63,986 bases of DNA from Microcaecilia unicolor (Eukaryota), in NCBI RefSeq assembly GCF_901765095.1, contig NC_044037.1, forward strand, positions 104,487,279 to 104,551,264, written 5' to 3'. Numbering within the stretch: position 1 is the first letter of the stretch; each line of letters starts with the position of its first letter. This document shows positions 4,754 through 38,239 of this stretch, in pieces. The translations under genes were made by a program, and so were the position numbers. The notes beneath the pieces are model-generated. The model had not been told where the DNA came from, searched no databases, and was given only the letters and a program-made list of their open reading frames with translations.

Positions 4754-5573
4754 ATAGTTATCAATATCCCTGTGACGTCTGTGCTCACCTCACCCTCTGG
4801 TGGCCAGAACCGGTGGCTGCTATGAACTATAGACTGTCTTGCTGTTCCTGCCCGTTCCAGACTTTAGCCTAGTCCAGTCCGGATCTTCCAGGCTGCCAAA
4901 CTTACTCTTCTTGTTTGTCCATGATCAGCACCCGTAGCTGCCTGGTGATTGCTGCAGCTGAAGCCTCAGCTGCTGCTAGGCTTATTAGCCATTCTGAAAT
5001 CTTTCTGCTTGCCTTTGCATTGCGTCTAAGGCCCTGGTATGTTGGGGTGCTGGTGCACTTCTGCTGTTCCCAGTTTCTAGTTTATTCCTGCCTTGATTCT
5101 TGTCTGTTCTTGCTAGTCTATGGATAGTTAGATTAGATTGTTGTTTGTTTGTTTGTTTGTTTGTTTGTTTGCTTGTCTTGTCTCTGAGTTGTAGTTCTCT
5201 GTTAGTCCTTGTCTGTTTGTATCTTACTGGCTGCTCTGCAGCTTTTAGTTTTGTGTCTTGTTAGTCAGTGTTTTGCTCCCTGTTTTAGTGGCTGTTTTCA
5301 GCTTTCAGTCCTGTCCTTTATCCTTTCCCTGCCTTGCTGTCCCTGTGCTGCCTAGCTGCTATCTAGTCCTGCCCTGTCCAGTAAGTCCTGCCGGCCACCT
5401 GAAGCCTGGAGCTCAACTCTTGGTGAAAGGTGGCCAGGTGCAGGTGAAGCCTAACTATTTGTCAGAAATCTGCCCTGTCTCTAGCGTGGGGTGGTTTTGC
5501 CTGCCACTGCCGCTCCTCGGCAGTGGTCCAAGGGCTCACAATCTAGTTTCCTGCTTGTATGCATGACAATCCC
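4754..5573. repeat. Unclassified insertion interrupting the L1 ORF2 between the EN-linker and the RT. It contains a (GTTT)n microsatellite at ~5138-5182.
   Basis: The ORF2 reading frame is lost between 5574 and 4753. There is a GTTT x~10 tract, and the 3' end (..caagggctcacaatctag..) resembles the MIR-like SINE core. Confidence 0.45.
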
Positions 5574-6713
5574 TCACCTGTACAGTGGCATCTTCCTTGT
5601 ATAGCTTTTCAAAAAATTGTGCAAACCGTTCCCGGATACTAGTAGATTTCTGTAACTGAGCCCCCCTTCATCCCGAACTCGCAAAATATGCCTATCTGCT
5701 CTCAACTTTCTCAACTTGGTAGCCAACAAACGCCCAGGCTTATTAGTACATTCATAATTAACTTGCCGCAGTTGTGCATGCACAGATTTCAGACTCTCAT
5801 CATGCAATGCAGCCAATTCTAATTGCACCGCCTGAAGCGTCTGATAATCTGACATAGAGCCAAAGGCCTTATACTTATCTTCCAGAGCTCCTAATCTTTC
5901 CATACAATTAGCCAGACGAGCCCTTTGAGCCCTAGCCCGATTACTTGCACATTTAATAAAGTATCCCCTTGAAACAGCCTTAAAAGCATCCCACACTACA
6001 CCCAAAGATGGCCCCAATTCCAGGTTAATTTCAAAATACTCTTTCAAAATAGGAACAAAGTTGTTAACAATATGTGACTCTTGTAGCAAACAATTATTAA
6101 ATGTCCATCTCCGATCCCGAACCTTCTCTCTTAAATCTGGAAGAATAGCCCAGACTGGAGCATGATCCGAAATAGTAGTATGCCCTATGAATGAGTCTCC
6201 ACCTCCATCTGACAGGGATTTGTCAAAAAAAATATATAATCCAACCACGAATGAGTCAAATGAACCGGGGAATAGAAAGTATAGTCCCTTTCCCTTGAAT
6301 GCCCAAGCCTCCAGACATCATAAAGACCCATAGAATCTACCAACCCTCCCAAAGCCTGAGAGAGTCTATATCAGTCGAAGCAGGAGTAGCAGAGCGATCC
6401 AACCTCGGCTGCATAGTAGCATTAAAATCCCCCGCCACCAGCAACTTGCCCCGCACAAAAGTCTGCAGAGCTCACCGAAGACGATAAAAAAAGATGTCCT
6501 GGTGCTCATTTGGTGCATAAACACAAGCCAAAGTATACTCCTCCTGCTCCAACAAGACATGTAGAAAAAGAAAACGACCCCCAGGGTCTCTCTTCAAGTG
6601 CAGGAGCTGCACCTGCAGATCCTTATGAAACATAATAGCCACTCCTCTCTTTTTAGCCCCCTGTGCATCCGACGCATAATACAAAAGCGGATATTGAGTA
6701 AAGAATAACAAAC

Positions 6714-7049
6714 CAGTGGCGTACCAAGGGGGAGGGCGGTGGGGGTGGTCCGCCCCGGGTGCACAACGCGCCTGGGGGATGCCACGCCGGTCAGCGTTGT
6801 TGGTTTCCATGCTCCCTCTGCCCCAGAACAGGTTACTTCCTGTTCCGGGGCAGAGGGAGCATGGAAACCAACGACGCTGACTGGCGCGCGGCACCCCCCC
6901 CCCCCAGCGGCGTGCACCCGGGGGGGGTTCTTTCGCCGGTGTCCCTTCGCCGGGGGGGGGGGGGGGGGATCGCGCTGCACCCAGGGGGGGCGGGGGCGGG
7001 GCGCATCGGCGATCCGCCCCGGGTGTCAGCGCCCCTCGGAACGCCACTG
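6714..7049. mobile_element. hAT-like foldback MITE (CAGTGGCG.. family, subfamily with a central long hairpin), inserted in the L1 EN domain.
   Basis: Termini cagtggcgtacc.../...gaacgccactg. Perfect 8-bp TSD TAACAAAC at 6706-6713 and 7050-7057. Central ~45-bp stem hairpin at ~6790-6883. Confidence 0.75.
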
Positions 7050-7742
7050 TAACAAACCTTCATGTTTTCTCAAGAAATGAGTTTCCTGTAAGAAAACCAC
7101 ATGTAGGTTTACCATACGCAGCTCCTTGAGCAAAGAATGCCGTTTAAATGGAGAATTCAAACCCTTAATATTGTAAGTTAGTACCCTACATTCACCCATT
7201 GACATAATATCCCTCAGAATAATTGCACAGATGAAAGGCTAAAGCCCGTCCCACCTTCCCACCCAACCTTCCCCCTAAGCCCTGATCCCCCTTCCCCCCC
7301 CTACACACCACCAAACAGAAGACACAAGCCCTCTGAGTGGGAAAACCAGGAAGTAAGTCTCACATATAAGACACACCCAGCTCACCTCCCCCCACCCAAC
7401 TCCCTTGCCCCTATCAACAACCTTTCCAATCCACCCATACACTGACTCATCCATAGAAAGCGCTGAATCTGACTCCGACTCCGACAGAGAAGCAGGAGCT
7501 GCAGCTTCGTGGTGCACAACGGCCTTCCCAGCCGAGCACCCTGAACTTCAAGTCGCGGCTTTTCTTCCCGCCATTGAAGATTTACTCATAATTGCTGGAC
7601 ACGATTGCTGGACACCTCCTACTCCTTTTCGCAAGTATTTAAGCCTTTTACAACCCCTGCAGCCAGGTGTATCGCTACTTTTCAGGAGCCAGATGAAGGA
7701 GAAAGCAAACTAGGCTGCCATATCGTGTAGTGACATCACTTC

Positions 7743-9030
7743 CTCCTCGGGACCACTGCTTTTTAACATATTTATAAATGACCTAGAGATGGGAGTAACT
7801 AGTGAGGTAATTAAATTTGCAGATGACACAAAATTATTCAGGGTTGTCAAGTCGCAGGAGGAGTGTGAAAGATTACAGGAGGACCTCGCGAGACTGGGGG
7901 ATTGGGCATGCAAGTGGCAGATGAAGTTCAATGTTGACAAGTGCAAAGTGATGCATATGGGTAAGAGGAACCCGAATTACAGCTATGTCATGCAAGGTTC
8001 CGCGTTAGGAGTTACGGCAGGTGGGGGGAAGAGGGGTTGGTGGTTGGGAGGCTAGGATAGGGGAGGGCAGACTTATATGGTCTGTACCAGAGCCGATGAT
8101 GGGAGGCGGGACTGGTGGTTGGGAGGCGGGAAATACTGCTGGGCAGACTTATACGGTCTGTGCCCTGAAAAGGACAGGTACAAATTCAAGGTAAGTTATA
8201 CACATATGAGTTTGTCTTGGGCAGACTGGATGGACCATGCAGGTCTTTTTCTGCCATCATCTACTATGTTACTATGTTACTATGGACCTAGAAAGGGATC
8301 TGGGAGTCATCGTGGATAAGCCGTAAAAAACTTCTGCTCAGTGTGCTGCGCCGGCTAAGAAAGCGCACAGAATGTTGAGTATTATTAGGAAAGGGATGGA
8401 AAACAAACATGAGGATGTTATAATGCCATTGTATCGCTCCACTGTGCGACCGCACCTCGAGTATTGTGTCCAATTCTGGTCGCCGCATCTCAAAAGAGAT
8501 ATAAAGGAATTAGAAAAGGTGCAGAGAAGGGTGATGAAAATGATAAAGGGAATGGACTTCTCTATGAGGAAAGGCTGAGAAGGTTAGGGCTCTTCAGCTT
8601 GGAGAAAAGGCGGCTGAGGGGTGATATGATAGAAGTCTGCAAGATAATGAACGGAGTAGAGCGGACAGATGTGAAACGTTTGTTTACACTTTCAAACAAC
8701 AAGAAAACCATGGGACACAAGATGAAGCTAGAATATGGTAGATTTAAAACAAATAGGAGAAAGGTTTTCTTTACTCAGCGTGAAGTTAGACTCTGGAACT
8801 CGTTGCTGGAGAATGTAGTGACAGCAGCTGGCCTTACGGAATTTAAAGGGGGTTTGGACAGATTCCTGAGGGAAAAGTCAATTGAACATTATTAATTTTT
8901 TTTTTTGGGGGGTGGGGGTTACCGGGTTCTTGAAGCCTGGATTGGCTGCTGTCGGAGACAGGATGCTGGGCTTGATGGACCCTTGGTCTTTTCCCAGTAT
9001 GGCGGTGCTCATGTACTTATGTACTTGTGA
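7743..9030 (+). mobile_element. CR1/L2-clade LINE 3' portion (RT C-terminus + 3' UTR ending in a TTATGTAC repeat). It carries a ~270-bp internal insertion at ~8016-8287.
   Basis: ORFs 7789..8055, 8372..8578 and 8464..8895 match the RT C-terminus of the 53043 copy (FADDTKLF, KCKVMHMGK, HLEYCVQFWSPHLK, LGLFSLEKRRLRGDMI). The 3' end ..ctggattggctgctgtcgg..gtacttatgtacttgtg is shared with 54470-54590. Confidence 0.75.
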
Positions 9031-9862
9031 ATTTTCAATTGTAAATATTTTATTCCTTTAAACATCACTTTTCTTGCATTCCACTCTGCCTGTGGTGAGC
9101 CCTCACTTCTGGGGCTTTCAAAAGAGTAGTAGCAGTTAGACACCTCAGTAGCACAGGCCTTGGGAGCCTGAACTCATTGGATCTGGTAGCGTATGGCAGT
9201 CAGCGGCTTTTAAATTGCTGACAGCCATGGATTGAATTAAGCCTGGATATTCAATGCCAAGCCACGTCTGGACTCCGACATTGAATATCCACATAAGTGC
9301 AGTCATCTGGAAGTTAACCGGGCGCCAGCTGGTATCCAGATCAGTGCCTGGTTAGCTCTGCGGAAAAGCTATGACACCCTTTTTGCTATCCTAACTGTAT
9401 GCACTTAACTGGTTAAGTGCCAAGTTCTGCCCCTCGCATTCACCAGACAGTAGACCTTCATCATGGGTCAACAAAAACTTCTCCACATAAAAGCAAGTGG
9501 GTCAAAATGCCACAGTAACAGTACACCTATGATGTGGCTGGTGGGGATCCCCAAGCCCCGCCATCTGAAAACTCTCAACACTTCTCCCTGTTCTGACCTG
9601 GTTTTACAGTCTGCTTCACTGACACAGATTACTCAGTAATTACTGTGTATTCTTTTGGATTCGTATTAGGTAAATGAGACTTTTATTAGAGGTTCTAAAA
9701 TCTAAGATGCACAATGAGATATATATATATATAACTGAAAAGAAACAATGATATCTATCTATAGTTAAACAATACCTATCTATAAACAATCATTACATCA
9801 CTGGTCCCTACATCCAAGCAATGCTAGGAGTTTTTTGACCAGGAAAAGCAATAATAAACTAT

Positions 9863-10725
9863 ACTACTACTACTACAACTACTACAAATCATTTCTCTAG
9901 CGCTACCAGTCGTACGCAGCGCTTCACAATTGAACATGAAGAAAAGACAGTCCCTGCTCAAAAGAGCTTACAATCTAAATCAGGACAGACAGACAGGACA
10001 AATAAGGGATAAGGGAAGGACAGATAGATAGGACACATAGGGAAAAGGGACTATTGAAGAGAGGAAGACAAGATAAAGGTTATGAGCAGGTGACAGGTTA
10101 GGAATTGAAAGCAGCATCAAGCAGGTAGGCCTTTAGCCCGGATTTGAAGGCGGCCAGGGATGGAGCTTGACGTAATGGCTCAGGAAGTTTATTCCAGGCA
10201 TAAGGTGCGACGAGATAAAAGGAACGGAGTCTGGAGTTAGCGATGGAGGAGAAGGGTGCAATTAGGAGAGATTTGCCTAGTGAACGGAGTTCCTGGGAAG
10301 GAGTGTAGGGAAAGATGAGGGTGGAGAGGTAGTGAGGGGCAGCAGAGTGAATGCACTTATAGGTTAATAAGAGGAGCTTGAATTGTATACGCAAACGGAT
10401 AGGGAGCCAGTGAAGTGACTTCAGAAGAGGGCTGATATGGGCATAGCGACTTTGGCAAAATATTAATCGTGCAGCAGAATTTTGAACAGATTGAAGAGGA
10501 GAGAGATGGTTGAGTGGAAGACCTGTAAGAAGCAAGTGGTGAGAAACAGTAGTCCTACTACTACTACTACTACTATTTAGCATTTCTATAGCGCTACAAG
10601 GCGTACGCAGCGCTGCACAAACATAGAAGAAAGACAGTCCCTGCTCAAAGAGCTTACAATCTAATAGTCCAAGCAAGAGATGAGAGTGTGGATGAAGGTT
10701 CTGGTAGAGTGCTCAGAAACAATCA
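9863..10725 (-). mobile_element. Composite insertion of MIR-like (CORE-SINE/L2-3'-tail-related) repeat copies ending in (TAG)n tails. The body carries a conserved ORF-like segment (..SLHWLPIRLRIQFKLL..).
   Basis: The (TAC)n tract plus 'gacagtccctgctcaaa.gagcttacaatcta' (minus strand: tagattgtaagctc..gagcagggactgtc..(tag)n) occurs at 9863-9960 and again at 10555-10680. ORF 10098..10676 (minus) is homologous to ORF 40501..40842 (plus). Confidence 0.5.
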
Positions 10726-10910
10726 TCACTGGTCCTTACATCAGCCAGACTCTTATCAACAGCTAGGGGGGGGGGGGCCCTGTTCACAGCAAAAACCAGG
10801 AGTTTCTTTGACCAGGAAATATGGTTCTTTGCGCAGTATGTACTCACAGATGAGCTCTCAATTTTACTGACAGAAACTCCCTTTTTGATTAGGCTGTTCA
10901 GAGTTAAGGA

Positions 10911-11104
10911 AAAGGGTATGATACATACCTGTAGCAGGTGTTCTCCGAGGACAGCAGGCTGATTGTTCTCACGACTGGGTGACGTCCGCGGCAGCCCCCA
11001 CCAACCGGAAAGAAGCTTCGCGGGACGGTCGGCACGCAGGGCACGCCCACCGCGCATGCGCGGCCGTCTTCCCGCCCGTGCGCGACCGCTCCCGCCAGTT
11101 GAAT
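10911..11104. repeat. DIRS inverted terminal repeat (3' ITR relative to the minus-strand element).
   Basis: ~163 bp reverse-complementary to 16818-16982. The outer 31 bp are unique and complementary to the ICR. Confidence 0.85.
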
Positions 11105-11154
11105 GACTAGCAAAAGATGAAACACACAACTCCAAAGGGGAGGAGGGAAGGTAG

Positions 11155-11253
11155 GTGAGAACAATCAGCCTGCTGTCCTCGGAGAACACCTGCTACAGGT
11201 ATGTATCATACCCTTTCTCCGAGGACAAGCAGGCTGCTTGTTCTCACGACTGG
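11155..11253. repeat. DIRS internal complementary region (ICR).
   Basis: The left half is identical to the reverse complement of the outer end of the 10911 ITR. The right half is complementary to the outer end of the 16982 ITR. Confidence 0.8.
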
Positions 11254-11408
11254 GATATCCCTAGCTCTCAGGCTCACTCAAAACAAGAACCCAGGTCAAT
11301 GGAACCTCGCAACGGCGAGGAAACAACAGAAATTGACCTACGAAGAACAACTAACTGAGAGTGCAGCCTGACCAGAATAAATTCGGGTCCTGGAGGGTGG
11401 AGTTGGAT

Positions 11409-14282
11409 TTACACCCCAAACAGATTCTGCAGCACCGACTGCCCGAACCGACTGTCGCGTCGGGTATCCTGCTGGAGGCAGTAATGTGATGTGAATGTGT
11501 GGACAGATGACCACGTCGCAGCCTTGCAAATCTCTTCAATAGTGGCTGACTTCAAGTGGGCCACTGACGCTGCCATGGCTCTAACACTATGAGCCGTGAC
11601 ATGACCTTCAAGAGTCAGCCCAGCCTGGGCGTAAGTGAAGGAAATGCAATCTGCTAGCCAATTAGAGATGGTGCGTTTCCCGACAGCGACCCCTAGCCTG
11701 TTAGGGTCGAAAGAAATAAACAATTGGGCGGACTGTCTGTTGGGCTGTGTCCGCTCCAAGTAGAAGGCCAATGCTCTCTTGCAGTCCAATGTGTGCAACT
11801 GACGTTCAGCAGGGCGGGTATGCGGCCTGGGGAAGAAAGTTGGCAAGACAATTGACTGGTTAAGATGGAACTCCGACACCACCTTCGGCAGGAACTTTGG
11901 GTGGGTGCGGAGCACTACTCTGTTGTGATGAAATTTGGTATATGGAGCATGAGCTACTAGGGCTTGAAGCTCACTGACCCTACGAGCTGAAGTAACTGCC
12001 ACCAAGAAAATGACCTTCCAGGTCAAGTACTTCAGATGGCAGGTATTCAGTGGCTCAAAAGGAGGTTTCATCAGCTGGGTGAGGACGACGTTGAGATCCC
12101 ATGACACAGTAGGAGGCTTGATAGGGGGCTTTGACAAAAGCAGGCCTCTCATGAATCGAACGACTAAAGGCTCTCCAGAGATGGCTTTACCTTCCACACG
12201 ATAATGGTAAGCACTAATCGCACTAAGGTGATTCCTTACTGAGTTGGTCTTGAGGCCAGACTCTGATAAGTGCAGAAGGTATTCAAGCAGGTTCTGTGCA
12301 GGGCAAGAACGAGGTTCTAGGGCCTTGCTCTCACACCAAACGACAAACCTCCTCCACTTGAAAAAGTAACTCTTTTTAGTGGAATCCTTCCTAGAGGCAA
12401 GCAAGACCCGGGAGACACCCTCAGACAGACCCAACGCAGCGAAGTCTACGCCCTCAACATCCAGGCCGTGAGAGCCAGGGATTGAAGGTTGGGGTGCAGC
12501 AACGCTCCGTCGTTCTGCGAAATGAGAGTCGGAAAACACTCCAATCTCCACGGTTCTTCTGAGGACAACTCCAGAAGAAGAGGGAACCAGATCTGACGGG
12601 GCCAAAAGGGCGCTATCAGAATCATGGTGCCGCGGTCTTGCTTGAGCTTCAGTAAGGTCTTCCCCACCAAAGGTATGGGAGGATAAGCATACAGGAGGCC
12701 GGTCCCCCAATGAAGGAGAAAGGCATCTGACGCTAGCCTGCCGTGTGTCTGAAGTCTGGAACAGAACAGAGGCAGCTTGTGGTTGGTCTGAGAGGCGAAA
12801 AGATCCACCGAGGGGGTGCCCCACTCTCGGAAGATCTTGCGTACCACTCTGGAATGGAGCGACCACTCGTGCGGTTGCATGACTCTGCTCAGTCTGTCGG
12901 CCAGACTGTTGTTTACGCCTGCCAGGTATGTGGCTTGGAGGAGCATGCCGAACCGGCACGCCCAACGCCACATCCCGACGGCTTCCTGACACAGGGGGCG
13001 AGATCCGGTGCCCCCCTGCTTGTTGACGTAATACATTGCAACCTGATTGTCTGTCCGAATTTGGATAATTTGGTAGGACAGCCGATCTCTGAAAGCCTTC
13101 AGTGCGTTCCAGATCGCTCGGAGCTCCAGGAGGTTGATCTGTAGATCCTTTTCCTGGAGGGACCACAGACCCTGGGTGTGAAGCCCATCGACGTGAGCTC
13201 CCCACCCCAGGCGAGATGCATCCGTCGTCAGCACTTTCGAGGGCTGCGGAATTTGGAATGGACGTCCCAGGGTCAAATTGGTCCGGATGGTCCACCAGAG
13301 CAGTGAAGTGCGGCAACTGGTGGAGAGGCGGATGACATCTTCTAGATTCCCGGTGGCTTGGAACCACTGGGAAGCTAGGGTCCATTGAGCAGATCTCATG
13401 TGAAGACGAGCCATGGGAGTCACATGAACTGTGGAGGCCATATGACCCAGAAGTCTCAACATCTGCCGAGCTGTGACCTGCTGAGACGCTCTGGTCTGCG
13501 AAGCCAGGGCCAGGAGATTGGTGGCCCGCGCTTCGGGAAGGTAGGCCTGAGCCGTCTGGGTATTCAGCAGCGCTCCTATGAATTCCAGAGACTGGGATGG
13601 CTGGAGATGGGACTTTGGGTAATTTATCACAAACCCCAGCAGCTCCAGAAGTTGAATAGTGCACTGCATGGACCGGAGGGCTCCTGCCTCCGAGGTGTTC
13701 TTGACCAGCCAATCGTCGAGATATGGGAACACGTGCACTCCCAGCTTGCGTAGGTAGGCCGCTACCACCACGAGGCACTTGGTAAACACTCGTGGGGCAG
13801 AGGCGAGCCCAAAGGGCAGCACACAATACTGAAAGTGCCGTGCGCCCAGGCGGAATCTGAGATACTGTCTGTGAGCTGGCAGTATCGGTATGTGAGTATA
13901 TGCGTCCTTTAAATCCAGGGAACATAGCCAATCGTTTTTCTGAATCATTGGCAGAAGGGTGCCCAAGGAAAGCATCCTGAACTTTTCTTTGACCAGGAAT
14001 TTGTTCAGGCCTCTCAGGTCTAGGATGGGACGCATCCCCCCTGTTTTCTTTTCCACAAGGAAGTACCTGGAATAGAATCCCTGCCCTTCCTGCCCGGGTG
14101 GTACGGGCTCGACCGCATTGGCGCTGAGAAGGGCGGAGAGTTCCTCTGCAAGTACCTGCTTGTGATGGGAGCTGAAAGACTGAGCTCCCGGGGGACAATT
14201 TGGAGGCAGGGAGGCCAAATTCAGGGCGTATCCGCACCGCACTATTTGGAGAACCCACTGGTCGGAGGTTATGAGAGGCCAC
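11409..14282 (-). CDS. DIRS tyrosine recombinase ORF (957-aa open frame). The YR catalytic domain is in the C-terminal ~330 aa (~11409-12400). The N-terminal part overlaps the RT/RH ORF in another frame.
   Basis: C-terminal motifs ...ARRVSELQAL..., HSVRAMAASVA (HxxR) and SHYCL (catalytic Tyr region) are typical of lambda-integrase-like YR. Confidence 0.8.
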   Translation of the reverse strand: MASHNLRPVGSPNSAVRIRPEFGLPASKLSPGSSVFQLPSQAGTCRGTLRPSQRQCGRARTTRAGRAGILFQVLPCGKENRGDASHPRPERPEQIPGQRKVQDAFLGHPSANDSEKRLAMFPGFKGRIYSHTDTASSQTVSQIPPGRTALSVLCAALWARLCPTSVYQVPRGGSGLPTQAGSARVPISRRLAGQEHLGGRSPPVHAVHYSTSGAAGVCDKLPKVPSPAIPVSGIHRSAAEYPDGSGLPSRSAGHQSPGPGFADQSVSAGHSSADVETSGSYGLHSSCDSHGSSSHEICSMDPSFPVVPSHRESRRCHPPLHQLPHFTALVDHPDQFDPGTSIPNSAALESADDGCISPGVGSSRRWASHPGSVVPPGKGSTDQPPGAPSDLERTEGFQRSAVLPNYPNSDRQSGCNVLRQQAGGHRISPPVSGSRRDVALGVPVRHAPPSHIPGRRKQQSGRQTEQSHATARVVAPFQSGTQDLPRVGHPLGGSFRLSDQPQAASVLFQTSDTRQASVRCLSPSLGDRPPVCLSSHTFGGEDLTEAQARPRHHDSDSALLAPSDLVPSSSGVVLRRTVEIGVFSDSHFAERRSVAAPQPSIPGSHGLDVEGVDFAALGLSEGVSRVLLASRKDSTKKSYFFKWRRFVVWCESKALEPRSCPAQNLLEYLLHLSESGLKTNSVRNHLSAISAYHYRVEGKAISGEPLVVRFMRGLLLSKPPIKPPTVSWDLNVVLTQLMKPPFEPLNTCHLKYLTWKVIFLVAVTSARRVSELQALVAHAPYTKFHHNRVVLRTHPKFLPKVVSEFHLNQSIVLPTFFPRPHTRPAERQLHTLDCKRALAFYLERTQPNRQSAQLFISFDPNRLGVAVGKRTISNWLADCISFTYAQAGLTLEGHVTAHSVRAMAASVAHLKSATIEEICKAATWSSVHTFTSHYCLQQDTRRDSRFGQSVLQNLFGV

Positions 14283-14719
14283 CTTTGGTGAAAGAATTTT
14301 AACCTCCCTCCGACCGGCAGATCGTCCGGTACGGACACTTGTAGGGAGGCTATGTTCCCGTGGATCCAGTCAAAAGCCCGTCCCCGGCTTTTGCTGTGGA
14401 GGCGCAGGGGGCTGCTTAGGCGCACGCTGTTGACGAGAACGAGCGCGCTGGGGCTGTCCCTGTGCCTGACGAGGCCTTCGGGCCGGCTGGTTGTACCTAC
14501 GCTTCGCAAAAGAATAGGGTGCAGCCTGCCGGGCCCGGGAAAAACGTCCACCTGTGGAGGTGGATGCTGAAGGCGCCCGGTGGGAGAGCTTGTCGAGAGC
14601 GGTTTCCCGCTGATGCAGTTGGTCCACCATCTGCTCGACCTTCTCACCGAAAATGTTATCCCCCCGGCAAGGGACGTCAGCCAGTCTCTGCTGGGTGCGG
14701 TTGTCCAGGTCAGAGGCAC
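12446..14719 (-). CDS. DIRS reverse transcriptase / RNase H ORF (757 aa).
   Basis: RT YxDD motif (FPYLDDWLV). RNase H motifs TDASRLGWGA, LELRAI, TDN, NSLADRLSR. DIRS/Ngaro-type C-terminal motif PSVDLFASQTNHKLPLF...LIAPFWPRQIW. Confidence 0.85.
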   Translation of the reverse strand: MPLTWTTAPSRDWLTSLAGGITFSVRRSSRWWTNCISGKPLSTSSPTGRLQHPPPQVDVFPGPGRLHPILLRSVGTTSRPEGLVRHRDSPSALVLVNSVRLSSPLRLHSKSRGRAFDWIHGNIASLQVSVPDDLPVGGRLKFFHQRWPLITSDQWVLQIVRCGYALNLASLPPNCPPGAQSFSSHHKQVLAEELSALLSANAVEPVPPGQEGQGFYSRYFLVEKKTGGMRPILDLRGLNKFLVKEKFRMLSLGTLLPMIQKNDWLCSLDLKDAYTHIPILPAHRQYLRFRLGARHFQYCVLPFGLASAPRVFTKCLVVVAAYLRKLGVHVFPYLDDWLVKNTSEAGALRSMQCTIQLLELLGFVINYPKSHLQPSQSLEFIGALLNTQTAQAYLPEARATNLLALASQTRASQQVTARQMLRLLGHMASTVHVTPMARLHMRSAQWTLASQWFQATGNLEDVIRLSTSCRTSLLWWTIRTNLTLGRPFQIPQPSKVLTTDASRLGWGAHVDGLHTQGLWSLQEKDLQINLLELRAIWNALKAFRDRLSYQIIQIRTDNQVAMYYVNKQGGTGSRPLCQEAVGMWRWACRFGMLLQATYLAGVNNSLADRLSRVMQPHEWSLHSRVVRKIFREWGTPSVDLFASQTNHKLPLFCSRLQTHGRLASDAFLLHWGTGLLYAYPPIPLVGKTLLKLKQDRGTMILIAPFWPRQIWFPLLLELSSEEPWRLECFPTLISQNDGALLHPNLQSLALTAWMLRA

Positions 14720-16592
14720 GCAGCCATGAGAGCCTGCGCATCACTATACCTTGGGCCGCAGCACGAGATGCCACGTCACAGGTGTCAAAAATACCCCTGG
14801 ACAGGAACTTTCTGCACGCCTTCAGCTGCCTGACCACCTCCTGATAAGGCCTGGACTGCTCCGGCGGGAGCTTCTCGACCAGGTCCGCCAGTTGTTGCAC
14901 ATAGGTCCGCATGTGAATGCTCATATAGAGCAGGTATGACTGGATGCGGGTCACGAGCATGGAGGATTGGTAGGCCTTCCTCCCAAACGAGTCCAGAGTG
15001 CGAGACTCCCGCCCCGGGGGCGCCGAGGCGGTATCCCTGGAACTCCGTGCCCTCTTGAGAGCAGAATCCACGACCGCTGAGTCATGGGGCAATTGGGGCC
15101 GCATGAGCTCTGGGTCAGAGTGGATCCTGTACTGGGACTCTGCTTTCTTGGGAATGGTGGGGTTAGTTAATGGTCGCACCCAGTTCCGGAGCAGCGTCTC
15201 CTTCAGGACATTGTGCAGCGGTACCGTGGAGGACTCTCTAGGTGGTGATGGATAGTCGAGGACCTCGAGCATCTCGGCCCTCGGCTCTTCCACAGAGACC
15301 ACGGGGAAGGGAATGCTGATAGACATATCCCGCACAAAGGAGGCAAAGGAGAGACTCTCAGGAGGTGAGAGCTTCCTCTCCGGTGAAGGCGTGGGGTCCG
15401 AGGGAAGGCCCGTAGACTCCTCTGAGGAGAAATATCTAGGGTCCTCCTCTTCCCCCCACGAGTCCTCATCCTCGGTATCGGACATTAGCTCATGTAGCTG
15501 AGTCCTGTACCGGGCCCGGCTCGACGTCGAGGCACCGAGCTCTCGGTGTCGTCGAGCGGTGGACTCCCGCGCCGGCGGGGACGGAGCTCCCTCCATCGAC
15601 GTCGACGGGGACTCCACCTGCGTGGCGGTCGAGACCGGCACCGCAAGCGGCGGCGGTGTCGACAGCCCCGGCGCCGGGCTAGAGCTCGCCGGCGCCACAG
15701 TCATCGGCGCCGAGGGCGCAAGCACCCCCGGCGCCGGCACAGCCTGGCGCATCAGCCCTTCCAGGATCCCCGGAAGGATGGCTCTGAGGCACTCGTCCAG
15801 GCCCGCTGCCGGGAAAGGCGGTGGGGCCGGTAAGGGTGTCGGTGCCGGAAGCTGCTGGGGGCCAGGAGACGGCACCGAGGTGCCGGAACCCCGACGCGTC
15901 GGTACCTCCACAACCGACGGAGACCTCTCCTCACGACGATGACGCTTCGGCGTCGTCTCCTCTCCAACATCGGGATGCACCGAAGGCGACCGGTGACGAC
16001 GCTTCTTGTCTTTCTTCCGATGCACGTCACCGGCGCCGGAGGGCATGGAGGAGGAGGAGGTCGATCCCCCTCGGTCTCGAGGTACCGGGTCAGACAGGGT
16101 TCGGTCTCGCGGCCCACGAGCTGAGGGCGTGACCGGGGCCGACTGCCCACGCGGCCTCTCACCCCCACTCTCACCGGAAGACCGGCGGGCCGACGGGACC
16201 TGTTCTCCTGGGGTCGCTGCCATCGGTGCCGATGTCTCGGGCATCGATACCGGTACCGAAGGGCCGGGCGTCGATACCGATGCCTTCGAGGTCGACGTCG
16301 AGGGGCCGGCGCAAGTTCCAAAAAGACGGTCCCGCAGAACTTGCCTCGCAACCTGGGTCCGTTTCCGGAGACCGAGACACAAAGAACACGACTTGAGATT
16401 GTGCTCCGGCCCGAGGCACTGGAGGCACCAAGCGTGGGTGTCGGTCTGCGAGATCGGCCGGCCGCAGCGACCACACTTTTTAAATCCACTCGGGACCTTC
16501 GAGGACATCGACGGAAAAATCGCGTCGGCGAAGTCAAAGTCGTCAATGGTGGCTAAAATCACACCACGAAAAACAAACGACCGAGCGGCCAC
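14370..16592 (-). CDS. DIRS gag-like ORF1 (740 aa; Pro/Ser/Arg-rich; Cys-rich N-terminus).
   Basis: First long ORF downstream of the 5' ITR on the minus strand. It sits in the position of DIRS ORF1. Confidence 0.6.
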   Translation of the reverse strand: MAARSFVFRGVILATIDDFDFADAIFPSMSSKVPSGFKKCGRCGRPISQTDTHAWCLQCLGPEHNLKSCSLCLGLRKRTQVARQVLRDRLFGTCAGPSTSTSKASVSTPGPSVPVSMPETSAPMAATPGEQVPSARRSSGESGGERPRGQSAPVTPSARGPRDRTLSDPVPRDRGGSTSSSSMPSGAGDVHRKKDKKRRHRSPSVHPDVGEETTPKRHRREERSPSVVEVPTRRGSGTSVPSPGPQQLPAPTPLPAPPPFPAAGLDECLRAILPGILEGLMRQAVPAPGVLAPSAPMTVAPASSSPAPGLSTPPPLAVPVSTATQVESPSTSMEGAPSPPARESTARRHRELGASTSSRARYRTQLHELMSDTEDEDSWGEEEDPRYFSSEESTGLPSDPTPSPERKLSPPESLSFASFVRDMSISIPFPVVSVEEPRAEMLEVLDYPSPPRESSTVPLHNVLKETLLRNWVRPLTNPTIPKKAESQYRIHSDPELMRPQLPHDSAVVDSALKRARSSRDTASAPPGRESRTLDSFGRKAYQSSMLVTRIQSYLLYMSIHMRTYVQQLADLVEKLPPEQSRPYQEVVRQLKACRKFLSRGIFDTCDVASRAAAQGIVMRRLSWLRASDLDNRTQQRLADVPCRGDNIFGEKVEQMVDQLHQRETALDKLSHRAPSASTSTGGRFSRARQAAPYSFAKRRYNQPARRPRQAQGQPQRARSRQQRAPKQPPAPPQQKPGTGF

Positions 16593-16817
16593 TAGGCCGC
16601 AATGTGGCGTCCCCGCTGGAAGCGAGGGAAAAAAGGGAGCGCGTGTCCCACACGCGCAGGGTTTCTTTTTTCTTTTTTTTTTTTTAAAAGGAAACCGGGC
16701 GGTAACTAAAACCGATAAACAAAGTTAGAAAAAAACACGATCAGCGTATACGCGATCGAACGATCCGGCGGCTGAACAGAGAGAGCGCAAAACACGACTC
16801 TCTCCAGGCGCGGAAAA

Positions 16818-16982
16818 AAAGGAACTGGCGGGAGCGGTCGCGCACGGGCGGGAAGACGGCCGCGCATGCGCGGTGGGCGTGCCCTGCGTGCCGACCGTCC
16901 CGCGAAGCTTCTTTCCGGTTGGTGGGGGCTGCCGCGGACGTCACCCAGTCGTGAGAACAAGCAGCCTGCTTGTCCTCGGAGA
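16818..16982. repeat. DIRS inverted terminal repeat (5' ITR relative to the minus-strand element).
   Basis: Reverse complement of 10942-11104. Confidence 0.85.
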
Positions 16983-17782
16983 AATTACAGAATACTTGAG
17001 AATTTCTCTATTTAGGCAAAGAAGCCATACTGTGGGAATGTGGTCACATGTTTCCCAGTCCAGATGGCCAATCTGAACTCGAAACAGGCTCCACCTCCCC
17101 CTTCACATACCAAATTAATTAGAACTGTGTCTTATCTTCTATATTCCATACAAACAGAATTATTTCTAATCAAAATACAGACCTCGAGTGCACTTGTCGT
17201 TCATGGCAGAGTTGAAAAACAGACCTCAAGTGCACTTGTCGTTCAAGGCAGAGTTGAAAAACAATCTTTAAAATTCATTTCTAATACACTCCCTCCCACA
17301 TACCTTTAAAAGAGCAGATCTTTGCCAGCAGCAAGCAGTGTGATTGATTCACGTTGTGGGGCTGGCATAAGCAGTGTGTATCAGTCATGCTGCTCACTGC
17401 CAGCAAACATCTGCTCTTTAAAAAGTACATGGTGGGGGGGAAGGGTGTTGAAGGACTGGATTGCCGGCAGAGTGGATGGGTGGGGGGCGGGGGGGTGGTG
17501 AAGGACTGGATTGCCTGCGGGCAGAAGAGGGAGAGACCAGCTCACCTGTGGGGTGGGATTCTTCTGCCTACCCAACTTGGGCACAGGCCCACCCAAAATT
17601 GTTTGTCTGGCTATGCCCTTAGTCAGTGCTAGCAGTCAATGCAGGCCTTCCTCAACCTGCCATCTCCAACTGTCTTGCTGTCAAATTTGTGAGTTCTTTG
17701 TACCAAATGGAGCACTGCTGAGTGCGAGGAAACGCACCCTGACTCTGCTTGGCAGCCGAGCAACCCCGAGGTTCACCTGCGG

Positions 17783-18405
17783 CAGGGGCGTTTCTGCGTG
17801 GGGCCACAGGGGCCTGGGCCCCCGCAGATTTCGCCCTGGCCCCCCTCCTGCCGCCAACCCTCCCCCACTAATGTTGTTTACCTTTGCTGGCGGGGGACCC
17901 CAACCCCCGCCAGCCGCCGAGGTCTTCAAAGTTCTTGTTCGTCGTCCTCCGTGGCCATGCTGTACCCTGTTGATTTGGAGTCTGTCTGACGTCGCACCAC
18001 GTTGTACGTGCGTACAACGTGGTGCGACGTCAGACAGACTCCGAATCAGCAGCGTACAACATGGCCACGGAGGAGGACGACGAACAAGAACTTTGAAGAC
18101 CTCGGCGGCTGGCGGGGGTTGTGGTCCCCGCCAGCTGAAGAATTACTTTTAAAAGCAGGCGGAAACGGACCTCAGCTGGCGGGGGTTGGGGTCCCCGCCA
18201 GCAAAGGTAAACAACGTCAGCGGGGGAGGGTTGGCGGCGGGAGAGGAGGTGGAGAGAGTCGTTGGTGGCAGGGGGGGCTCTGGTAATGGCGGGGGGGGGA
18301 GTCGTTGGTGGCAGGGGGGGCTCTGGCAATGGCGGGGGGGGACTAAATGTGCCCCCTCCCTCTGGCCCTGGCCCCCCCTACTGCCAGAGTCCAGATACGC
18401 CCCTG
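17783..18405. mobile_element. hAT-like foldback MITE (CAGGGGCG../..CGCCCCTG family) containing a long internal palindrome (17940-18080).
   Basis: Termini caggggcgtttctgcgtggggccacagg.../...cagatacgcccctg. Perfect 8-bp TSD ACCTGCGG at 17775-17782 and 18406-18413. The whole element is near-palindromic. Confidence 0.8.
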
Positions 18406-19257
18406 ACCTGCGGTGACCGCCATTCCCCAGGGGTTGAGCCCCCAGGTGTGGGCGTGTAATGGAAGATTTAAAGGATTGCTTTTCAACCCTGCTTTGATCA
18501 ATAATGAACTCTGAAATCTTCTGTCTTTGACCGAAAGTAACTTTTCTTGTAAATACAAAAACAAGTTGGAATGCAGAAGATATGACATAGCTCTAATTAA
18601 TTTGTTATGTGAAGGGAACGATGGAGCTTGTTTTCGGGTTCAGACTGGCCATCTGGACTAGGAAACATGTGACCACGTTCCCACAGTATGGCTTGTTTAC
18701 CTAGACAGAGAAGCATTCTGTAATTTTCCTTAGCTCTGAACATGAGTTCTGAGCCTAATAAAAAGGGGAGTTTCTTTCAGTGAAATTGGGAGCTCATCCG
18801 TGAGTAACGTACGTACTGCACAGAGGATCTGCTCCTGGTCTAAAATGCTCCTGGCTTTCGCTGTAACGGGCCCCCCCAGCTGATGATAAGAGCCTGGATG
18901 ATGTAAGGACCAGTGATGTTGTATGTATGTATTATTGCTTCTTTTCCTGGTCTAAGAGCTCTTAGCATTGCTTAGATGTAGAGACCAATGATGTAATGAT
19001 TGTTTAGCTAATCATTGTGTTTATATAGCTAATCATTGTATATACCTTAATCATTGTAGAATTTAGCACCTCTAATAAAGGTTTCATTTATCTAATACGA
19101 ATCCAAAAGAATCCACAGTAATTATTGAGTAGTCTGTGTCAGTGAGACAGGCTGTAAATCCAAAGCAGTACAGGGTGGCAGACAGGACTTATGTAGAGAG
19201 AAAATGAGAGGGGCGCTGAGGAAACCAGCTGGAGGAGAGTACAAGGGAGTGGCCCAG

Positions 19258-19450
19258 GTACAGGCAACAGTCCAACAGGCAGACAGCTGGCAAAGGAGAG
19301 ATCCAGGTACAAGCAAGGTCTTACAGGCAGGCAGCAGACAAGAGAGTAGTCCAGGTCCAAGAAAGGTCTTACAGGCAGGCAGCAGACGAGAGAGTAATCC
19401 AGGTATAAGCAAGGTCAAGAACCAGGAACACAGGCAGAACACAGTGAAGA
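19258..19450. repeat. Tandem repeat, ~48-bp unit x4 (caggtacaagcaaggtcttacaggcaggcagcagacaagagagtagtc).
   Basis: Four consecutive similar units are visible directly. Confidence 0.6.
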
Positions 19451-19599
19451 TAAAAGCTTACCAACTAGAAGCCGAAGCAATAATGCAGAGGAAAGCTCTC
19501 CTGAAGTAGTGCAGGCGTCTGATGTCAACATGAGGCAGCTGGAGAAGGAGAGCTTGACAGGTCAGGAAGGCAGTGAGGGGAGGGGCGCAGGAGCCCGCC

Positions 19600-20812
19600 C
19601 ATGGAGCAGGAAGGCGGGTTGGCGGTCACAAGCCAACTGGCAGAGCCAACTTGGAAGTTCCTCAGGAAGCGCGCTGATCCGACCGCAGGCAGGGCAACAT
19701 GGGGGACCCGGGTGCGCGCACAGAGCTGGAAAGTACTACGGAAGGGCACAGCACCGTCCCGAAGTGCCAGACCCGTAGAGACAGTGAGCGTCCCCACGCC
19801 ACCGGAGAGCCCCTCCGACGAGGAGGTAAGGGGCGTGACACTTGCCCAGTTCCTCAGTGCCTTTCTCATCCATGCCTAACACTAATTACCTTCCCCATTA
19901 TCATCCAGGCACTCCAGAACAACATGGCTCAGTTGTTCACCATAGTCTGCTTTCCCTCGGTTATAGGCCTCATCAACTGCACACACATCACACTCAGACC
20001 CCCATCCACGGACACCTACAGCAGTGGCATAGCAAGGTGGGGTGCCAGGGGAACGGCCGCTCCCCCAAACAGAGTTCTGCCGGCGCTTATTTTTTTTGTC
20101 CTGTTGCACTGAAAATGTGCGCCAGCGGAAGTCCGCTCTCGCTCCCCCATGCCGTCACTGGCTCCGCTTCTGACCTACAGGAATAGAAAATCATATCACT
20201 CCATGAACATGCAGATTGTGTGTGATGCCCAGGCCCCAGGGAGATTGTGGATATATGTGCCCACTACCCAGGCTTCACCCACAATGCCTACATCCTCCAG
20301 CATTCAGGAATCTACTGCACATTTGAACAAGGGGAGATCACTGGCACCTGGCTCCTAGGTAAGCAGTACAGGGATTCCTAAACCCCATACCTCCTCCCCC
20401 CCTCTTAACCTTCAAACACACTCCTTCTCTCTAGATGCCCTCAGAACTGACAACCATTACCCCACCTCCACAAGGTCACCATACCAGCCAATACACACCC
20501 ATGTCTGTGATTCTGCTTCCCCCACCCCACAGGTGACAGAGGCTACCCCCAGCATACCTGGATCAATAATCCCATAATCCACCTCCATAATGAGGCAGGA
20601 GGAGAGTATAACGAGGCATAAGAGCACCCGCACCACCATAGAATGGACCTTTGGCCATATCAAGAATTGCTTCAGATGACTGGACCATTCCGGAGGGGAG
20701 CTCTTCTAGAGCCCTAAAAAGGTTGCCAAACGTTTGATGTCCTGCTGCTTGCTGCACAACCTGGCTCTCCAAAGAAGACAGGCCCTGCCAGAGGAGGGAC
20801 AGCAACCACAGC
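19600..20812 (+). pseudogene. Harbinger/PIF-type DDE transposase (HARBI1-like) pseudogene. It has frameshifts, two in-frame stops and two intron-like interruptions. Its 3' end continues after the hAT insertion at 23388-23480.
   Basis: Transposase motifs in order: ITFP..IQALQNNMAQLFTIVCFPSVIGLINCTHITLRPP; YRNRKSYHSMNMQIVCD; YPGFTHNAYILQHSGIY..GEITGTWLLG; then after GT..AG (20359-20532) DRGYPSIPGS; then YNEAHKSTRTTIEWTFGHIKNCFR*LDHSGGELF*SPKKVAKRLMSCCLLHNLAL. Confidence 0.65.
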
Positions 20813-21491: not shown

Positions 21492-21841
21492 CAGTGGCGT
21501 AGCCACAGGTGGGCTTGGGTGGGCCAGGGCCCACCCATTTATGGCTCGGGCCCACCCAACAGTAGCACATGTTTAGTGGTAACTAGTGGGAATCCCAAGC
21601 TCTGCCAGCTGAAGATTTCCCCCTGATGGTAACGAACATGCTACTCTCCACAACACCGGCACCTGTGCATGCTCAGTTTTCAGTGCATGCTTGCTGCCAA
21701 GGTGAAAAGAAGCGTTTTCCCACTGGCTGAGATAATTTTTTTTGGAGGGGGGGAGAACACTTGGTGCCCACCCAATTCTTGCCCAGGCCCACCCAAAATC
21801 TGTTGTCTGGCTACGCCCCTGATCCTAAAGCAAAAAAATAA
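21492..21841. mobile_element. hAT-like foldback MITE (CAGTGGCGTAGCC family) nested in element A.
   Basis: Termini cagtggcgtagccacagg.../...tggctacgcccctg. Perfect 8-bp TSD ATCCTAAA (21484-21491 and 21842-21849). Confidence 0.8.
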
Positions 21842-21849
21842 AAATATAT

Positions 21850-22980
21850 ATTTTATTTACAGTTTGTTGTCTCTGGTTTCTGCTTTCCTCATCTTCTTTT
21901 CACTGTCTTCCTTCCATCCAGCATCTGTCTTCGGTCTCTCTTTGCCATCCAATTTCTGCCCTCTCTCCCTGCCCCTTACATCCACCATCTGCCCCTGTCT
22001 GCCCTCTCTCTCTCCCCCTTCCATTCACTGTCTACCCTTTCTATCCCTTCCATCCACTGTCTGTCCTTTCTCTCTGCCCCTTCAATCCACCATTTGCCCT
22101 CCCTCTCCCATCCATCCAGGGTCTGCCCTCCCTCTCGCTCCCCCTTCCATCCAGGATCTGCCCCTCCCTCTCTGCCCCTTTTTTTCAGCCCCCAGTTCCA
22201 GCCCCACTATCCCACCAGTCCCCCGTTTCAGCCCCAGCCCTTTTCTCCCACCAGTCTCGAGCTTCAGCCCCCAGCCACTTCTCCCTGTCCCCTTTTCAGC
22301 ACCCAGTTTCAACCCCAGCCCTTTTCTCTCATCAGTCCCAAGCTTCAGCCCCAGCCACTTCTGTCTCCTTTTCAGCCCCCAGTCCCCACACTTTCAGCCC
22401 CTGCCCCTTTTCAGCCTCCAGTCCCAGTACTAGCCCCCTTATCCCACCTACCCTCCTTTTCAGCCCCCAGTTCCAGCCCCCTTCATCCACATGCCTTGTA
22501 TTAGGGCCCCCCTTTTCAGCCCCAGAACCATTCTCCCACCTGACCCATGCATGCCCCATTTTCCCACCAGCCCCAGGCATGGCCCCCATTCTCCCATATG
22601 GCCCCTTCTCAGACCCCAGTTCCAGCCCCCTTCTCCCATCTGGGAGCCCCCTCCCCTCCTCCCATTCAAGAACCTCCTCGCCTCCCCACCCCAGTCCCTT
22701 CTGCCATCCGAGAACCCTCTCCCCACCCCACCCCCCTTCTCCCATCCCCCTTCCCACCCTAGTCCTCTTCTCCCATCCGAGAACCACCTCCCCACCCCAG
22801 TCCCCTTCTCCCATCCAAGAACCCCAGTCCCCTCCCCACCCCACCCATCCCCTGCTCCCATCCAAGAACCCCCTCCCCTCCCCCAGTCCCCTTCAACCAT
22901 CCGAGAACCCCCATCCCACACCCTTCTCCCATCTGAGTCCCCCCCCCCGACCTGACCCACCTACCAGCTCCGTTCTCCTG
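21850..22980. repeat. CT-rich low-complexity / degenerate tandem block (ccc-ttc-cat-cca motifs). The ORFs here are compositional artefacts.
   Basis: Strong pyrimidine bias on the plus strand. Similar composition at 61760-62800, which also follows a MITE end. Confidence 0.6.
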
Positions 22981-24102
22981 CCACCACCCTCACTGCCTTT
23001 TAAAAAAAAATTTGCGAAGTGCCGGAGTGGCAGGCAGCGCCTCGAGTCTGCCCTGCTAGTAAAAATCTCCTCGACGTTGTCAGGCCTTCCCACATTGAGT
23101 CCCGCCCGCCCTCGCGGTAATAGGAAGTTACCTCAGAGGAGGGCTGGACTCAATGTGGGAAGGCCCGACAACGTCGAGGAGATTTTTACTAGCAGGGCAG
23201 ATGCGAGGCACTGCCTGCCACTCCAGCGCTTGACAAATTTTTTAAAAAAGGCAGGACAGGGTGGGAGCAGCGGAGGGAGGGGGGACTGGAGCTCGGGTGG
23301 TCGGGGCGGGGCGACTTCAGGCGCGCCGCGCAGGACCCCCTTGAGCGCGAGGCCCTATGCGGTCGCCTCGCCCTAAGACCGGCCCTGACCACAGCAGCAG
23401 CCACTCGACCCAGAGGATAAGGAGCATACCAGTTGGGAGTCAGCGACAGACAAAGACTCATTCTGACCAATTTTCAGTAAAGGTAAGTGCACTATTTATT
23501 TGTGCACAGCACCTCTGTAACATCCCCCACCCCCTCTCCCCCAGCACAAACCCCCCTCCTGCTGCACATACAACCCCACCCCTGCAAATACAGACTCACC
23601 CCCTCTCCCCAGCACACACCACCACAGCATGGCAATTAGGTGACTCACAGTTCTCCCCCTCCCCAACCCCTCTGGGAACCACTTCTCCCACCCTGTCCCC
23701 GACCTGCTGGCAATGGCCCAGGCCTTGCAGGAGCAGAAATTGTGTCAGAGTTCTCCTCTCTGGGGCTTCCACTGTCCTCACAGTCATCAGTCCGTCCTGC
23801 CGCCTCTGTTGTAACCTGGAAATCTAGTCACCTGATTGGCCAGGTGGTTGATGTGCTGCTGGGCCCAGCAAACAGGAAGGGAGCTTGCACCAGCTCTGCA
23901 CCTATATGAGAAGTCAATACAAATGTGGTATAGATTAGAGAATGACATGGGGACAGGGAACCGCAGCAGGGTATTCAACAGGGGTTGGGTCTAGACCATT
24001 AATGAAGTTTTCTGTGTCCATGTTGTTCTGAGGTAGGGTTTTGCGTAGGTTTATGATTTTTTCATTGAAATATTTAGCAAGGCTGTCTGCAGATGCGATG
24101 TC

Positions 24103-35600: not shown

Positions 35601-36289
35601 TTTTTTCCTTCTGTGGATTACAACAAAGATCATTTTAGTAACCAGCACATAAGTACAAGCACCCTTTTTAACCCCTCCCTCTTCCTTGCCAAGCAGAGGC
35701 GTAGCCACGGGCGGGCCTGGATGAGCCCAGGCCCAGCCACTTTCCCTCCAGACCCACCCATCCAACATCCTTCGCTTGCTGTCACTGCTTTTTCTCCCGT
35801 GGCTCCGGGTATGGCCGTCCAGGAGGCAGTGTTCAGCGTTGCCTGCCTACCTGCCCTGAAATAATTCTTCTCCCCAGGCTCCGCTGCCTCGGTCCCTACA
35901 TTTTCTTTTTCGCCCGTCGCGCAGCGCTGACATTCACACAGGCAGCTCCGCTCTCCCCTATCGCGTCCATCTGGCCCTACGTAAACAGGAAGTGCATCAG
36001 AGAGGGCTGGATGGATGTGGCAAAGGGGAGCGGAGCTACCTGTGTGAATGGCAGCGCTGTGCAACGGGCAAAAAAGAGAATACAGGGACAGAGGCAGCAG
36101 AGCCTGGGGAGAAGAAGAATTTCAGGGCAGGTAGGCAGGCAATGATGAATGCTGCCTTCCGGACGGACATACCCGGAGCCACTGGAGAAAAGGCAGCGAC
36201 AGCGAGCGAAGGATGTTGGATGGGCGGGCCTGGAGGGCAGAACTAAAGTAAGTGCTGGACCCTTGGGGGGGGAGGACGGGGGGGGGGGC

Positions 36290-37999: not shown

Positions 38000-38239
38000 T
38001 GGCGGACCGTGGCTTAGTGGAGGATGAAGAGTGCTCCCTCTTATATTTCCCCTAGCTCTCAATGTGGCCTGCAGCCACTGAGGCCAGCACTGCTACTCCC
38101 ATTGAAGTTATTGGGAGTGGGGTAGGTGTGCAGTAGGAGTAGGGGCATGGGCAGGGCATATCAGGTGCAGGTGTTTCTCTAGTGCCCGTCCATCCAACCT
38201 GTTGGCGCACCCAAAAATTGCCTTCTGTCTATGCCACTG
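38000..38239. repeat. 3' fragment of a CAGTGGCGTAGCC-family hAT MITE (inverted relative to the copy at 60625).
   Basis: 38190-38239 ..acctgttggcgcacccaaaaattgccttctgtctatgccactg is the reverse complement of 60625-60670. The interior matches 60700-60830. Confidence 0.5.

Follow-up and report, generated by a model that had tools for sequence, protein, structure and literature searches.

An inverted repeat broken up by younger mobile elements lies at positions 9589-19172 of a 63,986-nucleotide stretch of the Microcaecilia unicolor genome (NCBI RefSeq assembly GCF_901765095.1, contig NC_044037.1, positions 104,487,279 to 104,551,264 of the forward strand), the whole of which is referred to here as the 64-kb window. 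We propose, with a probability of roughly 0.6, that its two arms are old copies of one ~720-bp long terminal repeat (LTR)-like element, probably solo LTRs, that inserted independently and in opposite orientation. The left copy has since received a composite insertion derived from long interspersed nuclear elements (LINEs) and an intact DIRS1-like retrotransposon; the right copy is uninterrupted and provides the paralogous empty sites of both, as the original prediction had described for the DIRS.

The inverted arms and their ends

When the region 18400-19300 was used as a BLASTN query against the 64-kb window, just three non-self matches were returned, every one on the minus strand and in order:

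18930-19175 against 9586-9856, minus strand, E 2e-51
18724-18922 against 10719-10913, minus strand, E 9e-37
18567-18726 against 16982-17148, minus strand, E 6e-45

The inverted match is collinear, pairing the reverse complement of 18450-19175 with 9586-9862, 10719-10910, and 16985-17293, and the same arm pairs were recovered by separate repeat finding in the window. Once its two insertions are taken out, the left arm can be aligned with gaps to the reverse complement of the right arm, and the alignment runs unbroken over both insertion points. The original prediction, that a collinear inverted match would extend across three left-arm segments, holds in this respect, and its arm size (~700 bp), spacer (~0.5 kb), and inner end of homology (17290/18440) are close to the values measured here. 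The arms and the repeats that flank them are as follows:

9589-9862, plus strand: left arm, piece A, beginning TGTTCTG; matches the reverse complement of 18930-19172 (87.2% ungapped identity)
10724-10910, plus strand: left arm, piece B; matches the reverse complement of 18727-18915 (87.6% ungapped identity)
16985-17288, plus strand: left arm, piece C, ending ...AATACA and holding a duplication at 17173-17256; 87.7% ungapped identity to the right arm
18455-19172, minus strand: right arm, 718 bp, solo-LTR-like (TGT...ACA) and free of interruptions; paralogous empty site of both the L2 and the DIRS insertion
9584-9588, plus strand: left arm, outer flank, 5-bp direct repeat CTCCC; identical to 17289-17293
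17289-17293, plus strand: left arm, inner flank, 5-bp direct repeat CTCCC; identical to 9584-9588
18450-18454, plus strand: right arm, inner flank, 5-bp repeat GGGCG; 4/5 against 19173-19177
19173-19177, plus strand: right arm, outer flank, 5-bp repeat GGGTG; 4/5 against 18450-18454

The three left-arm pieces share one history, as is indicated by their equal ungapped identity to the right arm and by Kimura two-parameter (K2P) distances of 0.140-0.145 for each piece (0.16 overall). The arms are ~86-87% identical (~14% divergence), with 42 indel events between them. The reconstructed left arm measures 763 bp; the duplication in its piece C is a 42-bp tandem repeat private to that arm. The inner end of homology reaches 17293/18450, weakly yet significantly (local score 28; null maximum 16), and no homology was found between the outer flanks 9000-9585 and 19176-19760 (score 12; null 11.2 +/- 1.4). 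Whole-window self-BLAST likewise gave no nearer inverted matches that would lengthen the arms outward. The arms are non-coding, with no open reading frame (ORF) of at least 100 aa inside the right arm (18455-19172), and have a low observed/expected (o/e) CpG ratio of 0.23-0.37.

Solo LTRs are integrase-made insertions with TG...CA ends and target-site duplications (TSDs) of 4-6 bp, and both arms have these features. The left arm reads ...CTT-CTCCC-TGTTCTGACC...TCTAATACA-CTCCC-TCCCAC..., that is CTCCC/TGTTCTG...AATACA/CTCCC with a flank match of 5/5; the right arm, in its own orientation, reads ...TGC-CACCC-TGTACTGC...CCATTACA-CGCCC-ACACCT..., that is CACCC/TGTACTG...ATTACA/CGCCC with a flank match of 4/5. 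Among 20,000 random boundary pairs, with +/-6 nt of slack, TG..CA ends together with a perfect flank of at least 5 bp arose by chance in 0.12% of cases, and with at most one mismatch in 1.9%. TGT...ACA ends and a separate 5-bp repeat thus bound each arm, and at both edges of either arm the arm-arm homology runs no further than these repeats, which suggests two independent insertions of one solo-LTR-like element.

The arms resemble solo LTRs of LTR retrotransposons and endogenous retroviruses in their TGT start, ACA end, ~720-bp length, non-coding content, and 5-bp direct repeats. They differ in being unusually close together, inverted, and flanked by similar TSDs, and no full-length element, primer-binding site (PBS), polypurine tract, or further family member was found for them in the 64-kb window or in metagenome contigs. 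While the inverted homology, the element boundaries with their TSDs, and the DIRS anatomy and junction count are directly observed, solo LTRs inserted independently are, judged from the sequence, the most likely identity and origin of the arms. At ~18427-18435 (minus strand), 10 nt beyond the ACA end of the right arm, stands TGGGGGCTC, which equals the first 9 nt of a tRNA-Pro PBS; were it a true PBS, the right arm would be a 5' LTR and not a solo LTR. We judged the match to be chance, with the rest of the site mismatched and its spacing at odds with the TSD reading.

Several observations count against two independent solo-LTR insertions. The 64-kb window holds no other copy of the arm sequence, leaving a dispersed LTR family or a full-length element unproven, and exact-pattern scans of metagenome contigs with the longest arm-conserved blocks found nothing. 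Two same-family copies ~0.5 kb apart require an abundant family or a coincidence, the latter being less surprising in a locus that was chosen by a first-stage scan. Finally, the four flanking 5-mers are alike (C-N-CCC), for which the chance under independent insertions is ~1.7%, and this likeness is directly explained by inverted duplication of one solo LTR together with its TSDs.

Alternative origins of the inverted pair

Such a local inverted duplication would have placed a second, inverted copy of one solo-LTR-like element and its TSDs ~0.5 kb from the first, for instance through template switching during replication or through fold-back repair. This corresponds to the pre-existing inverted duplication of the original prediction and is unlikely in our estimate, though it deserves real weight. 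Besides the shared C-N-CCC flanks, as expected had the TSDs been copied with the element, it is favored by the presence of just these two arm copies in the window, by the equal divergence of all arm pieces, and by a possible ~10-nt extra similarity, CACA(TA)CCT, just inside the inner ends. Against it, both breakpoints must land within a few nucleotides of the element's TGT/ACA and TSD boundaries, and beyond the arm boundaries there is no significant homology. Moreover, the right 5-mers differ from those on the left at one same position but with different bases (A and G versus T and T), so that two independent hits at equivalent sites would be needed. Because duplication breakpoints have no reason to fall on element termini, the signature of segmental duplication is absent: neither arm has boundaries independent of transposable element (TE) ends or homology reaching into flanking unique DNA.

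A wider proposal, which we consider rather improbable, holds that the pair had a single-event origin, either as an inverted duplication templated on a solo LTR or as an undescribed LTR-derived foldback element mobile in caecilian genomes, and that the locus is, separately, a rare vertebrate before/after pair for a DIRS crossover at the exact 3-nt junction.

More doubtful still is a single mobile foldback, or long terminal inverted repeat (TIR) DNA transposon, with ~720-bp TIRs and a ~0.5-kb core that was interrupted later. Equal-length long inverted arms flanking a short core fit this geometry, and long hairpin miniature inverted-repeat transposable elements (MITEs) are frequent in the window. 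However, a single foldback transposon should have one TSD around the whole unit, and the outer CTCCC and GGGTG form no such repeat: the left ...CACTT/CTCCC and right GGGTG/GCAGA sequences have no direct match of 2 to 9 bp. Instead, a flanking repeat belongs to each TGT...ACA-bounded arm. The core consists mostly of other TE fragments, and no second copy of the unit is present in the 64-kb window. FB-type foldback transposons and inverted-duplication palindromes are alike in having long inverted arms around a short spacer, but here there are TSDs per arm, the arms have none of the internal subrepeat arrays typical of FB-type elements, and the arm boundaries are TE-like termini. The original prediction of a pre-existing inverted duplication or foldback is not supported.

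An assembly artefact (a chimeric palindromic read) or chance similarity can be dismissed: artificial palindromes can occur in long-read assemblies, but they would be near-identical, whereas these arms diverge by ~14%, differ by 42 indel events, and carry arm-specific insertions with TSDs of their own, which excludes an artefact. Chance is excluded by BLAST E-values of 1e-35 to 1e-51.

Insertions into the left copy and the spacer

The two insertions that separate the pieces of the left copy are:

10911-16984, minus strand: intact DIRS1-like retrotransposon, 6074 bp, recognized by its ORFs, inverted terminal repeats (ITRs), internal complementary region (ICR), and Pfam matches
9863-10716, minus strand: composite LINE-derived insertion, absent from the right arm; two adjacent elements, each (TAG)n-ended

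The DIRS element, which the original prediction correctly called at 10911-16982, has the full DIRS1-like anatomy, with Gag, reverse transcriptase (RT)/RNase H, and a tyrosine recombinase in place of an integrase. The Gag ORF (16592->14370, 740 aa) has a Pfam LAP2alpha match (PF11560, E 1.1e-5, just over the gathering score), in agreement with the reported derivation of the mammalian LAP2-alpha-specific domain from DIRS Gag. The RT/RNase H ORF (14719->12446, 757 aa) matches RVT_1 (E 1.7e-18) and RT_RNaseH, and the tyrosine-recombinase ORF (14282->11409, catalytic part 12445->11409) has an N-terminal SAM-like domain (Phage_int_SAM_4) and HSVR...HY motifs. At E<=1e-30, 526 homologues of the RT were found, led by sequences of turtles and the salamander Pleurodeles with 46-51% identity. 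Being at most 51% identical to any protein in a 5.8-billion-sequence database, from which the source genome is probably missing, the RT indicates that this DIRS family is not represented in that database.

The ITRs (16983-16823 and 10941-11100) are 160 nt long and 99.4% identical, and a right extension of 30 nt occupies 10911-10940. In the ICR (11155-11254), the two halves overlap on a 3-nt junction, TTT, at 11214-11216: 11155-11216 is complementary to 10911-10972 at 62/62 positions, and 11214-11254 is complementary to 16944-16984 at 41/41. The only two ITR differences both fall in the ICR-covered part, and both versions recur there, one in each ICR half, which indicates that these differences are built into the element and are not mutations. 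ITR divergence was therefore rejected as an age clock for the DIRS. Of the comparison proposed in the original prediction, between arm divergence and ITR divergence, the first term is usable (K2P 0.14-0.16), and the second was replaced by the terminus-to-ICR comparison, in which there are 0 differences in 103 nt. All DIRS ORFs are open and the CpG o/e is 0.81; the copy looks intact and very young.

The integration junction can be read against the empty site of the right arm, where the sequence quoted in the original prediction, gagctaaggaaaattacag, is the exact reverse complement of part of 18705-18745. The empty site is AAGG-AAAA-TTACAG, the filled site is AAGG-AAAA-GGGTATG ... CTCGGAG-AAA-TTACAG, with AAA at both DIRS ends (plus strand), and the circle junction deduced from the ICR is GGAG-AAA-GGGT. 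The filled site's 4+3 A residues equal the four of the target plus the three of the junction, so that the net gain is the element with one AAA. This is the count expected of a crossover within AAA, which makes no TSD, and the TSD-free integration originally predicted is borne out by empty AAAA versus filled AAAA...AAA.

This integration model matches that of Piednoel et al. (2011; PMC3266345), whose Table 3 includes elements of amphibians and lizards with TTT termini, an AAA junction, a right extension of 28-34 nt, and ICR halves that measure 39-65 nt; the junction also agrees with the discussion of trinucleotides in PMC7192593. The element is like XtDIRS3 and AcDIRS2 (PMC3266345) in its 6.07-kb size, its Gag, RT/RNase H, and tyrosine-recombinase ORFs with a long ORF overlap, its ITRs of ~160 bp, 30-nt right extension, and ICR halves of 41 and 62 nt, and its sense-orientation TTT termini, AAA junction, and absence of a TSD.

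The other insertion in the left copy had been described as SINE-like and placed at 9863-10725; the start stands, the end is corrected to 10716, and the label does not hold. A short interspersed nuclear element (SINE) encodes no protein and has a head derived from a Pol III transcript (tRNA, 5S, or 7SL), whereas the 691-bp piece of this insertion (10554->9864) carries a LINE ORF2 C-terminus (ORF 10098-10676) and ARAGORN found no tRNA-like head in the insertion, nor did Rfam give a tRNA, 5S, or 7SL match for it. Homologues of ORF 10098-10676 include RVT_1 (PF00078) proteins, and its closest named matches are Microcaecilia unicolor proteins at 74-87% identity. With an ORF2 C-terminus, a simple-repeat-tailed 3' untranslated region (UTR) ending in (TAG)n, and a TSD, the 691-bp piece has the features of a 5'-truncated L2-type LINE, to which we provisionally assign it on sequence features. 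The TSD, which flanks the composite as a whole, is a probable 7-bp one with a 6/7 match (AAACTAT at 9856-9862 and AAACAAT at 10717-10723), and the unoccupied site is seen in the right arm.

The adjoining 162-bp piece (10716->10555) has its own (TAG)7 tail and has only the ~110-nt 3' tail in common with the 691-bp piece (91.7% identity), differing upstream; it could be an L2-tailed SINE or belong to another LINE subfamily. The tail motif TAGATTGTAAGCTC..GGGACTGTCT resembles L2/MIR tails. L2-clade LINEs and their MIR/Mon-1-type SINE partners share with this insertion 5' truncation, an ORF2 C-terminus, and a microsatellite-like (TAG)n 3' UTR end, while the 162-bp piece has the tail module alone in common with them. 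The CpG o/e of the L2 pieces is 0.51. A third copy of the L2-type tail lies at 52330-52442.

The spacer between the arms and the outer flank of the left arm hold further elements:

17294-18449, no strand: spacer between the copies, 525 bp without MITE-A and one TSD copy; CpG o/e 0.25
17783-18405, no strand: hAT-type MITE (MITE-A) with 8-bp TSD, TIRs, and a long internal hairpin
17311-17417: palindromic MITE-like element of 107 bp with ends AGAGCAGAT.../...ATCTGCTCT, TTAAA on both sides, 13 bp from the inner flanking repeat of the left arm
17565-17622: 3'-terminal fragment of a second hAT MITE family (MITE21-type), in the spacer
9517-9569, plus strand: MITE21-type hAT MITE fragment (score 21; null maximum 13), matching positions 65-120 of the MITE at 21492-21821

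In total, the spacer measures 1156 bp. MITE-A was originally predicted with exact coordinates, and its 8-bp TSD, ACCTGCGG at 17775-17782 and 18406-18413, is perfect; the accompanying claim that it splits an arm fails, as its position is within the spacer, with 44 bp between it and the flanking repeat of the right arm. Its TIR is CAGGGGCGT(T/A)TCTGCG, its ends are CAGGGGCG.../...CGCCCCTG, and its CpG o/e is 0.66. A sister copy at 49588-50113 has the 8-bp TSD ATTTGTAC on both sides and an internal hairpin (49666-50033) that is 92.8% complementary. MITE-A has the 8-bp TSD, short TIRs with a YARNG start, and non-coding content of hAT MITEs; the CAGGG start fits the hAT YARNG rule, and the probable assignment to the hAT superfamily draws on TSD length and TIR start only. 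It is like hAT-superfamily MITEs in its 8-bp TSD, CAGGG TIRs, hairpin interior, absence of an ORF, and occurrence in more than one copy with differing TSDs, but no autonomous partner or hAT transposase was seen for it in the 64-kb window. Aberrant hAT transposition was considered as the origin of the inverted repeat and rejected, as MITE-A is bordered on either side by a normal, perfect TSD and abuts no arm.

A full MITE21-family hAT MITE (330 bp, 21492-21821) has the TIR CAGTGGCGTAGCC.../...GGCTACGCCCCTG and the perfect 8-bp TSD ATCCTAAA. Fragment 9517-9569 stops ~15 bp short of the left arm's flanking repeat, and 17565-17618 corresponds to MITE21 positions 272-325, in the same order and orientation as the outer fragment. 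The left arm may, speculatively, have landed inside a MITE21-family copy; the interior of such a split MITE did not align significantly, and neither a 5' TIR nor a TSD was found for it. Rfam matches (MIR2619, mir-3851, and others) were discarded, being far under gathering scores and merely reflecting the MITE and ICR hairpins.

Order of events and genomic setting

CpG o/e rises from the arms (0.23-0.37) through L2 (0.51) and MITE-A (0.66) to the DIRS (0.81), a soft age proxy only, since elements start with unequal CpG content. Together with divergence, it indicates a likely order of arms, L2, MITE, and DIRS, in which the placement of the arms first and the DIRS last is robust and the relative order of the L2 pieces and MITE-A is soft. 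Of the sequential splitting in the original prediction, the sequence of events can be deduced from decay proxies only, and the MITE drops out as an arm insertion.

In the history we propose, two LTR-like copies would have inserted independently in opposite orientation, ~0.2-0.5 kb apart, each making a 5-bp TSD. A LINE-derived block would then have entered the left copy by target-primed reverse transcription, leaving the ~7-bp TSD, and the hAT MITE would have entered the spacer by cut-and-paste with its 8-bp TSD. Very recently, the DIRS would have entered the left copy through a tyrosine-recombinase crossover between the circle-junction AAA and an AAA in the target AAAA, with no TSD.

The rest of the window is likewise pieced together from LINE fragments, hairpin MITEs, and tandem arrays. 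A LINE-like copy at 1-442, 7750-8017, and 8281-9023 is collinear with 53141-54588 (73-84% identity), which overlaps an ORF at 53043-53876 with an RVT_1 match (E 1e-32). The left LINE-like copy is interrupted by a ~7.3-kb block, 443-7749, with minus-strand ORFs for an RT fragment (3388-4122) and a coiled coil (863-1792); here too, a nested insertion has its empty site preserved in a paralogous copy. Many self-complementary (hairpin) elements, 70-500 bp in length, occur throughout the window, at 6750-6926, 22978-23270, 31071-31217, 35744-36237, 39044-39186, 43780-43931, 49128-49323, 54728-54864, and 56756-56931, and presumably represent more MITE families. A 48-bp tandem array (19241-19416; 3.6 copies, 80% matches) begins ~65 bp past the outer end of the right arm, and larger tandem arrays occupy 36267-37013, 44107-44671, and 62391-62675. 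GC skew is strong at 36-38 kb (+0.47) and 22-24 kb (-0.40). A second inverted pair, 37272-38239 versus 60625-61885, is 75-77% identical over ~0.7+0.2 kb and lies ~23 kb apart.

Caecilian genomes consist of ~70% repeats, with LINEs and DIRS the most abundant (bioRxiv 10.1101/2022.02.23.481419; PMC8498967). Given this proportion and the TE mosaic of the window itself, the locus is an ordinary nested-TE cluster, a normal nested-insertion landscape in which the intact right copy happens to keep the empty sites. The arm pair is without evident function and is most likely a neutral relic that was later colonized by other elements. The locus is notable only for its clean paralogous empty site, against which the DIRS junction confirms, at single-nucleotide resolution, the proposed model of recombination between the circle-junction AAA and a target AAA; looking intact and very young, this DIRS may belong to a currently active family.

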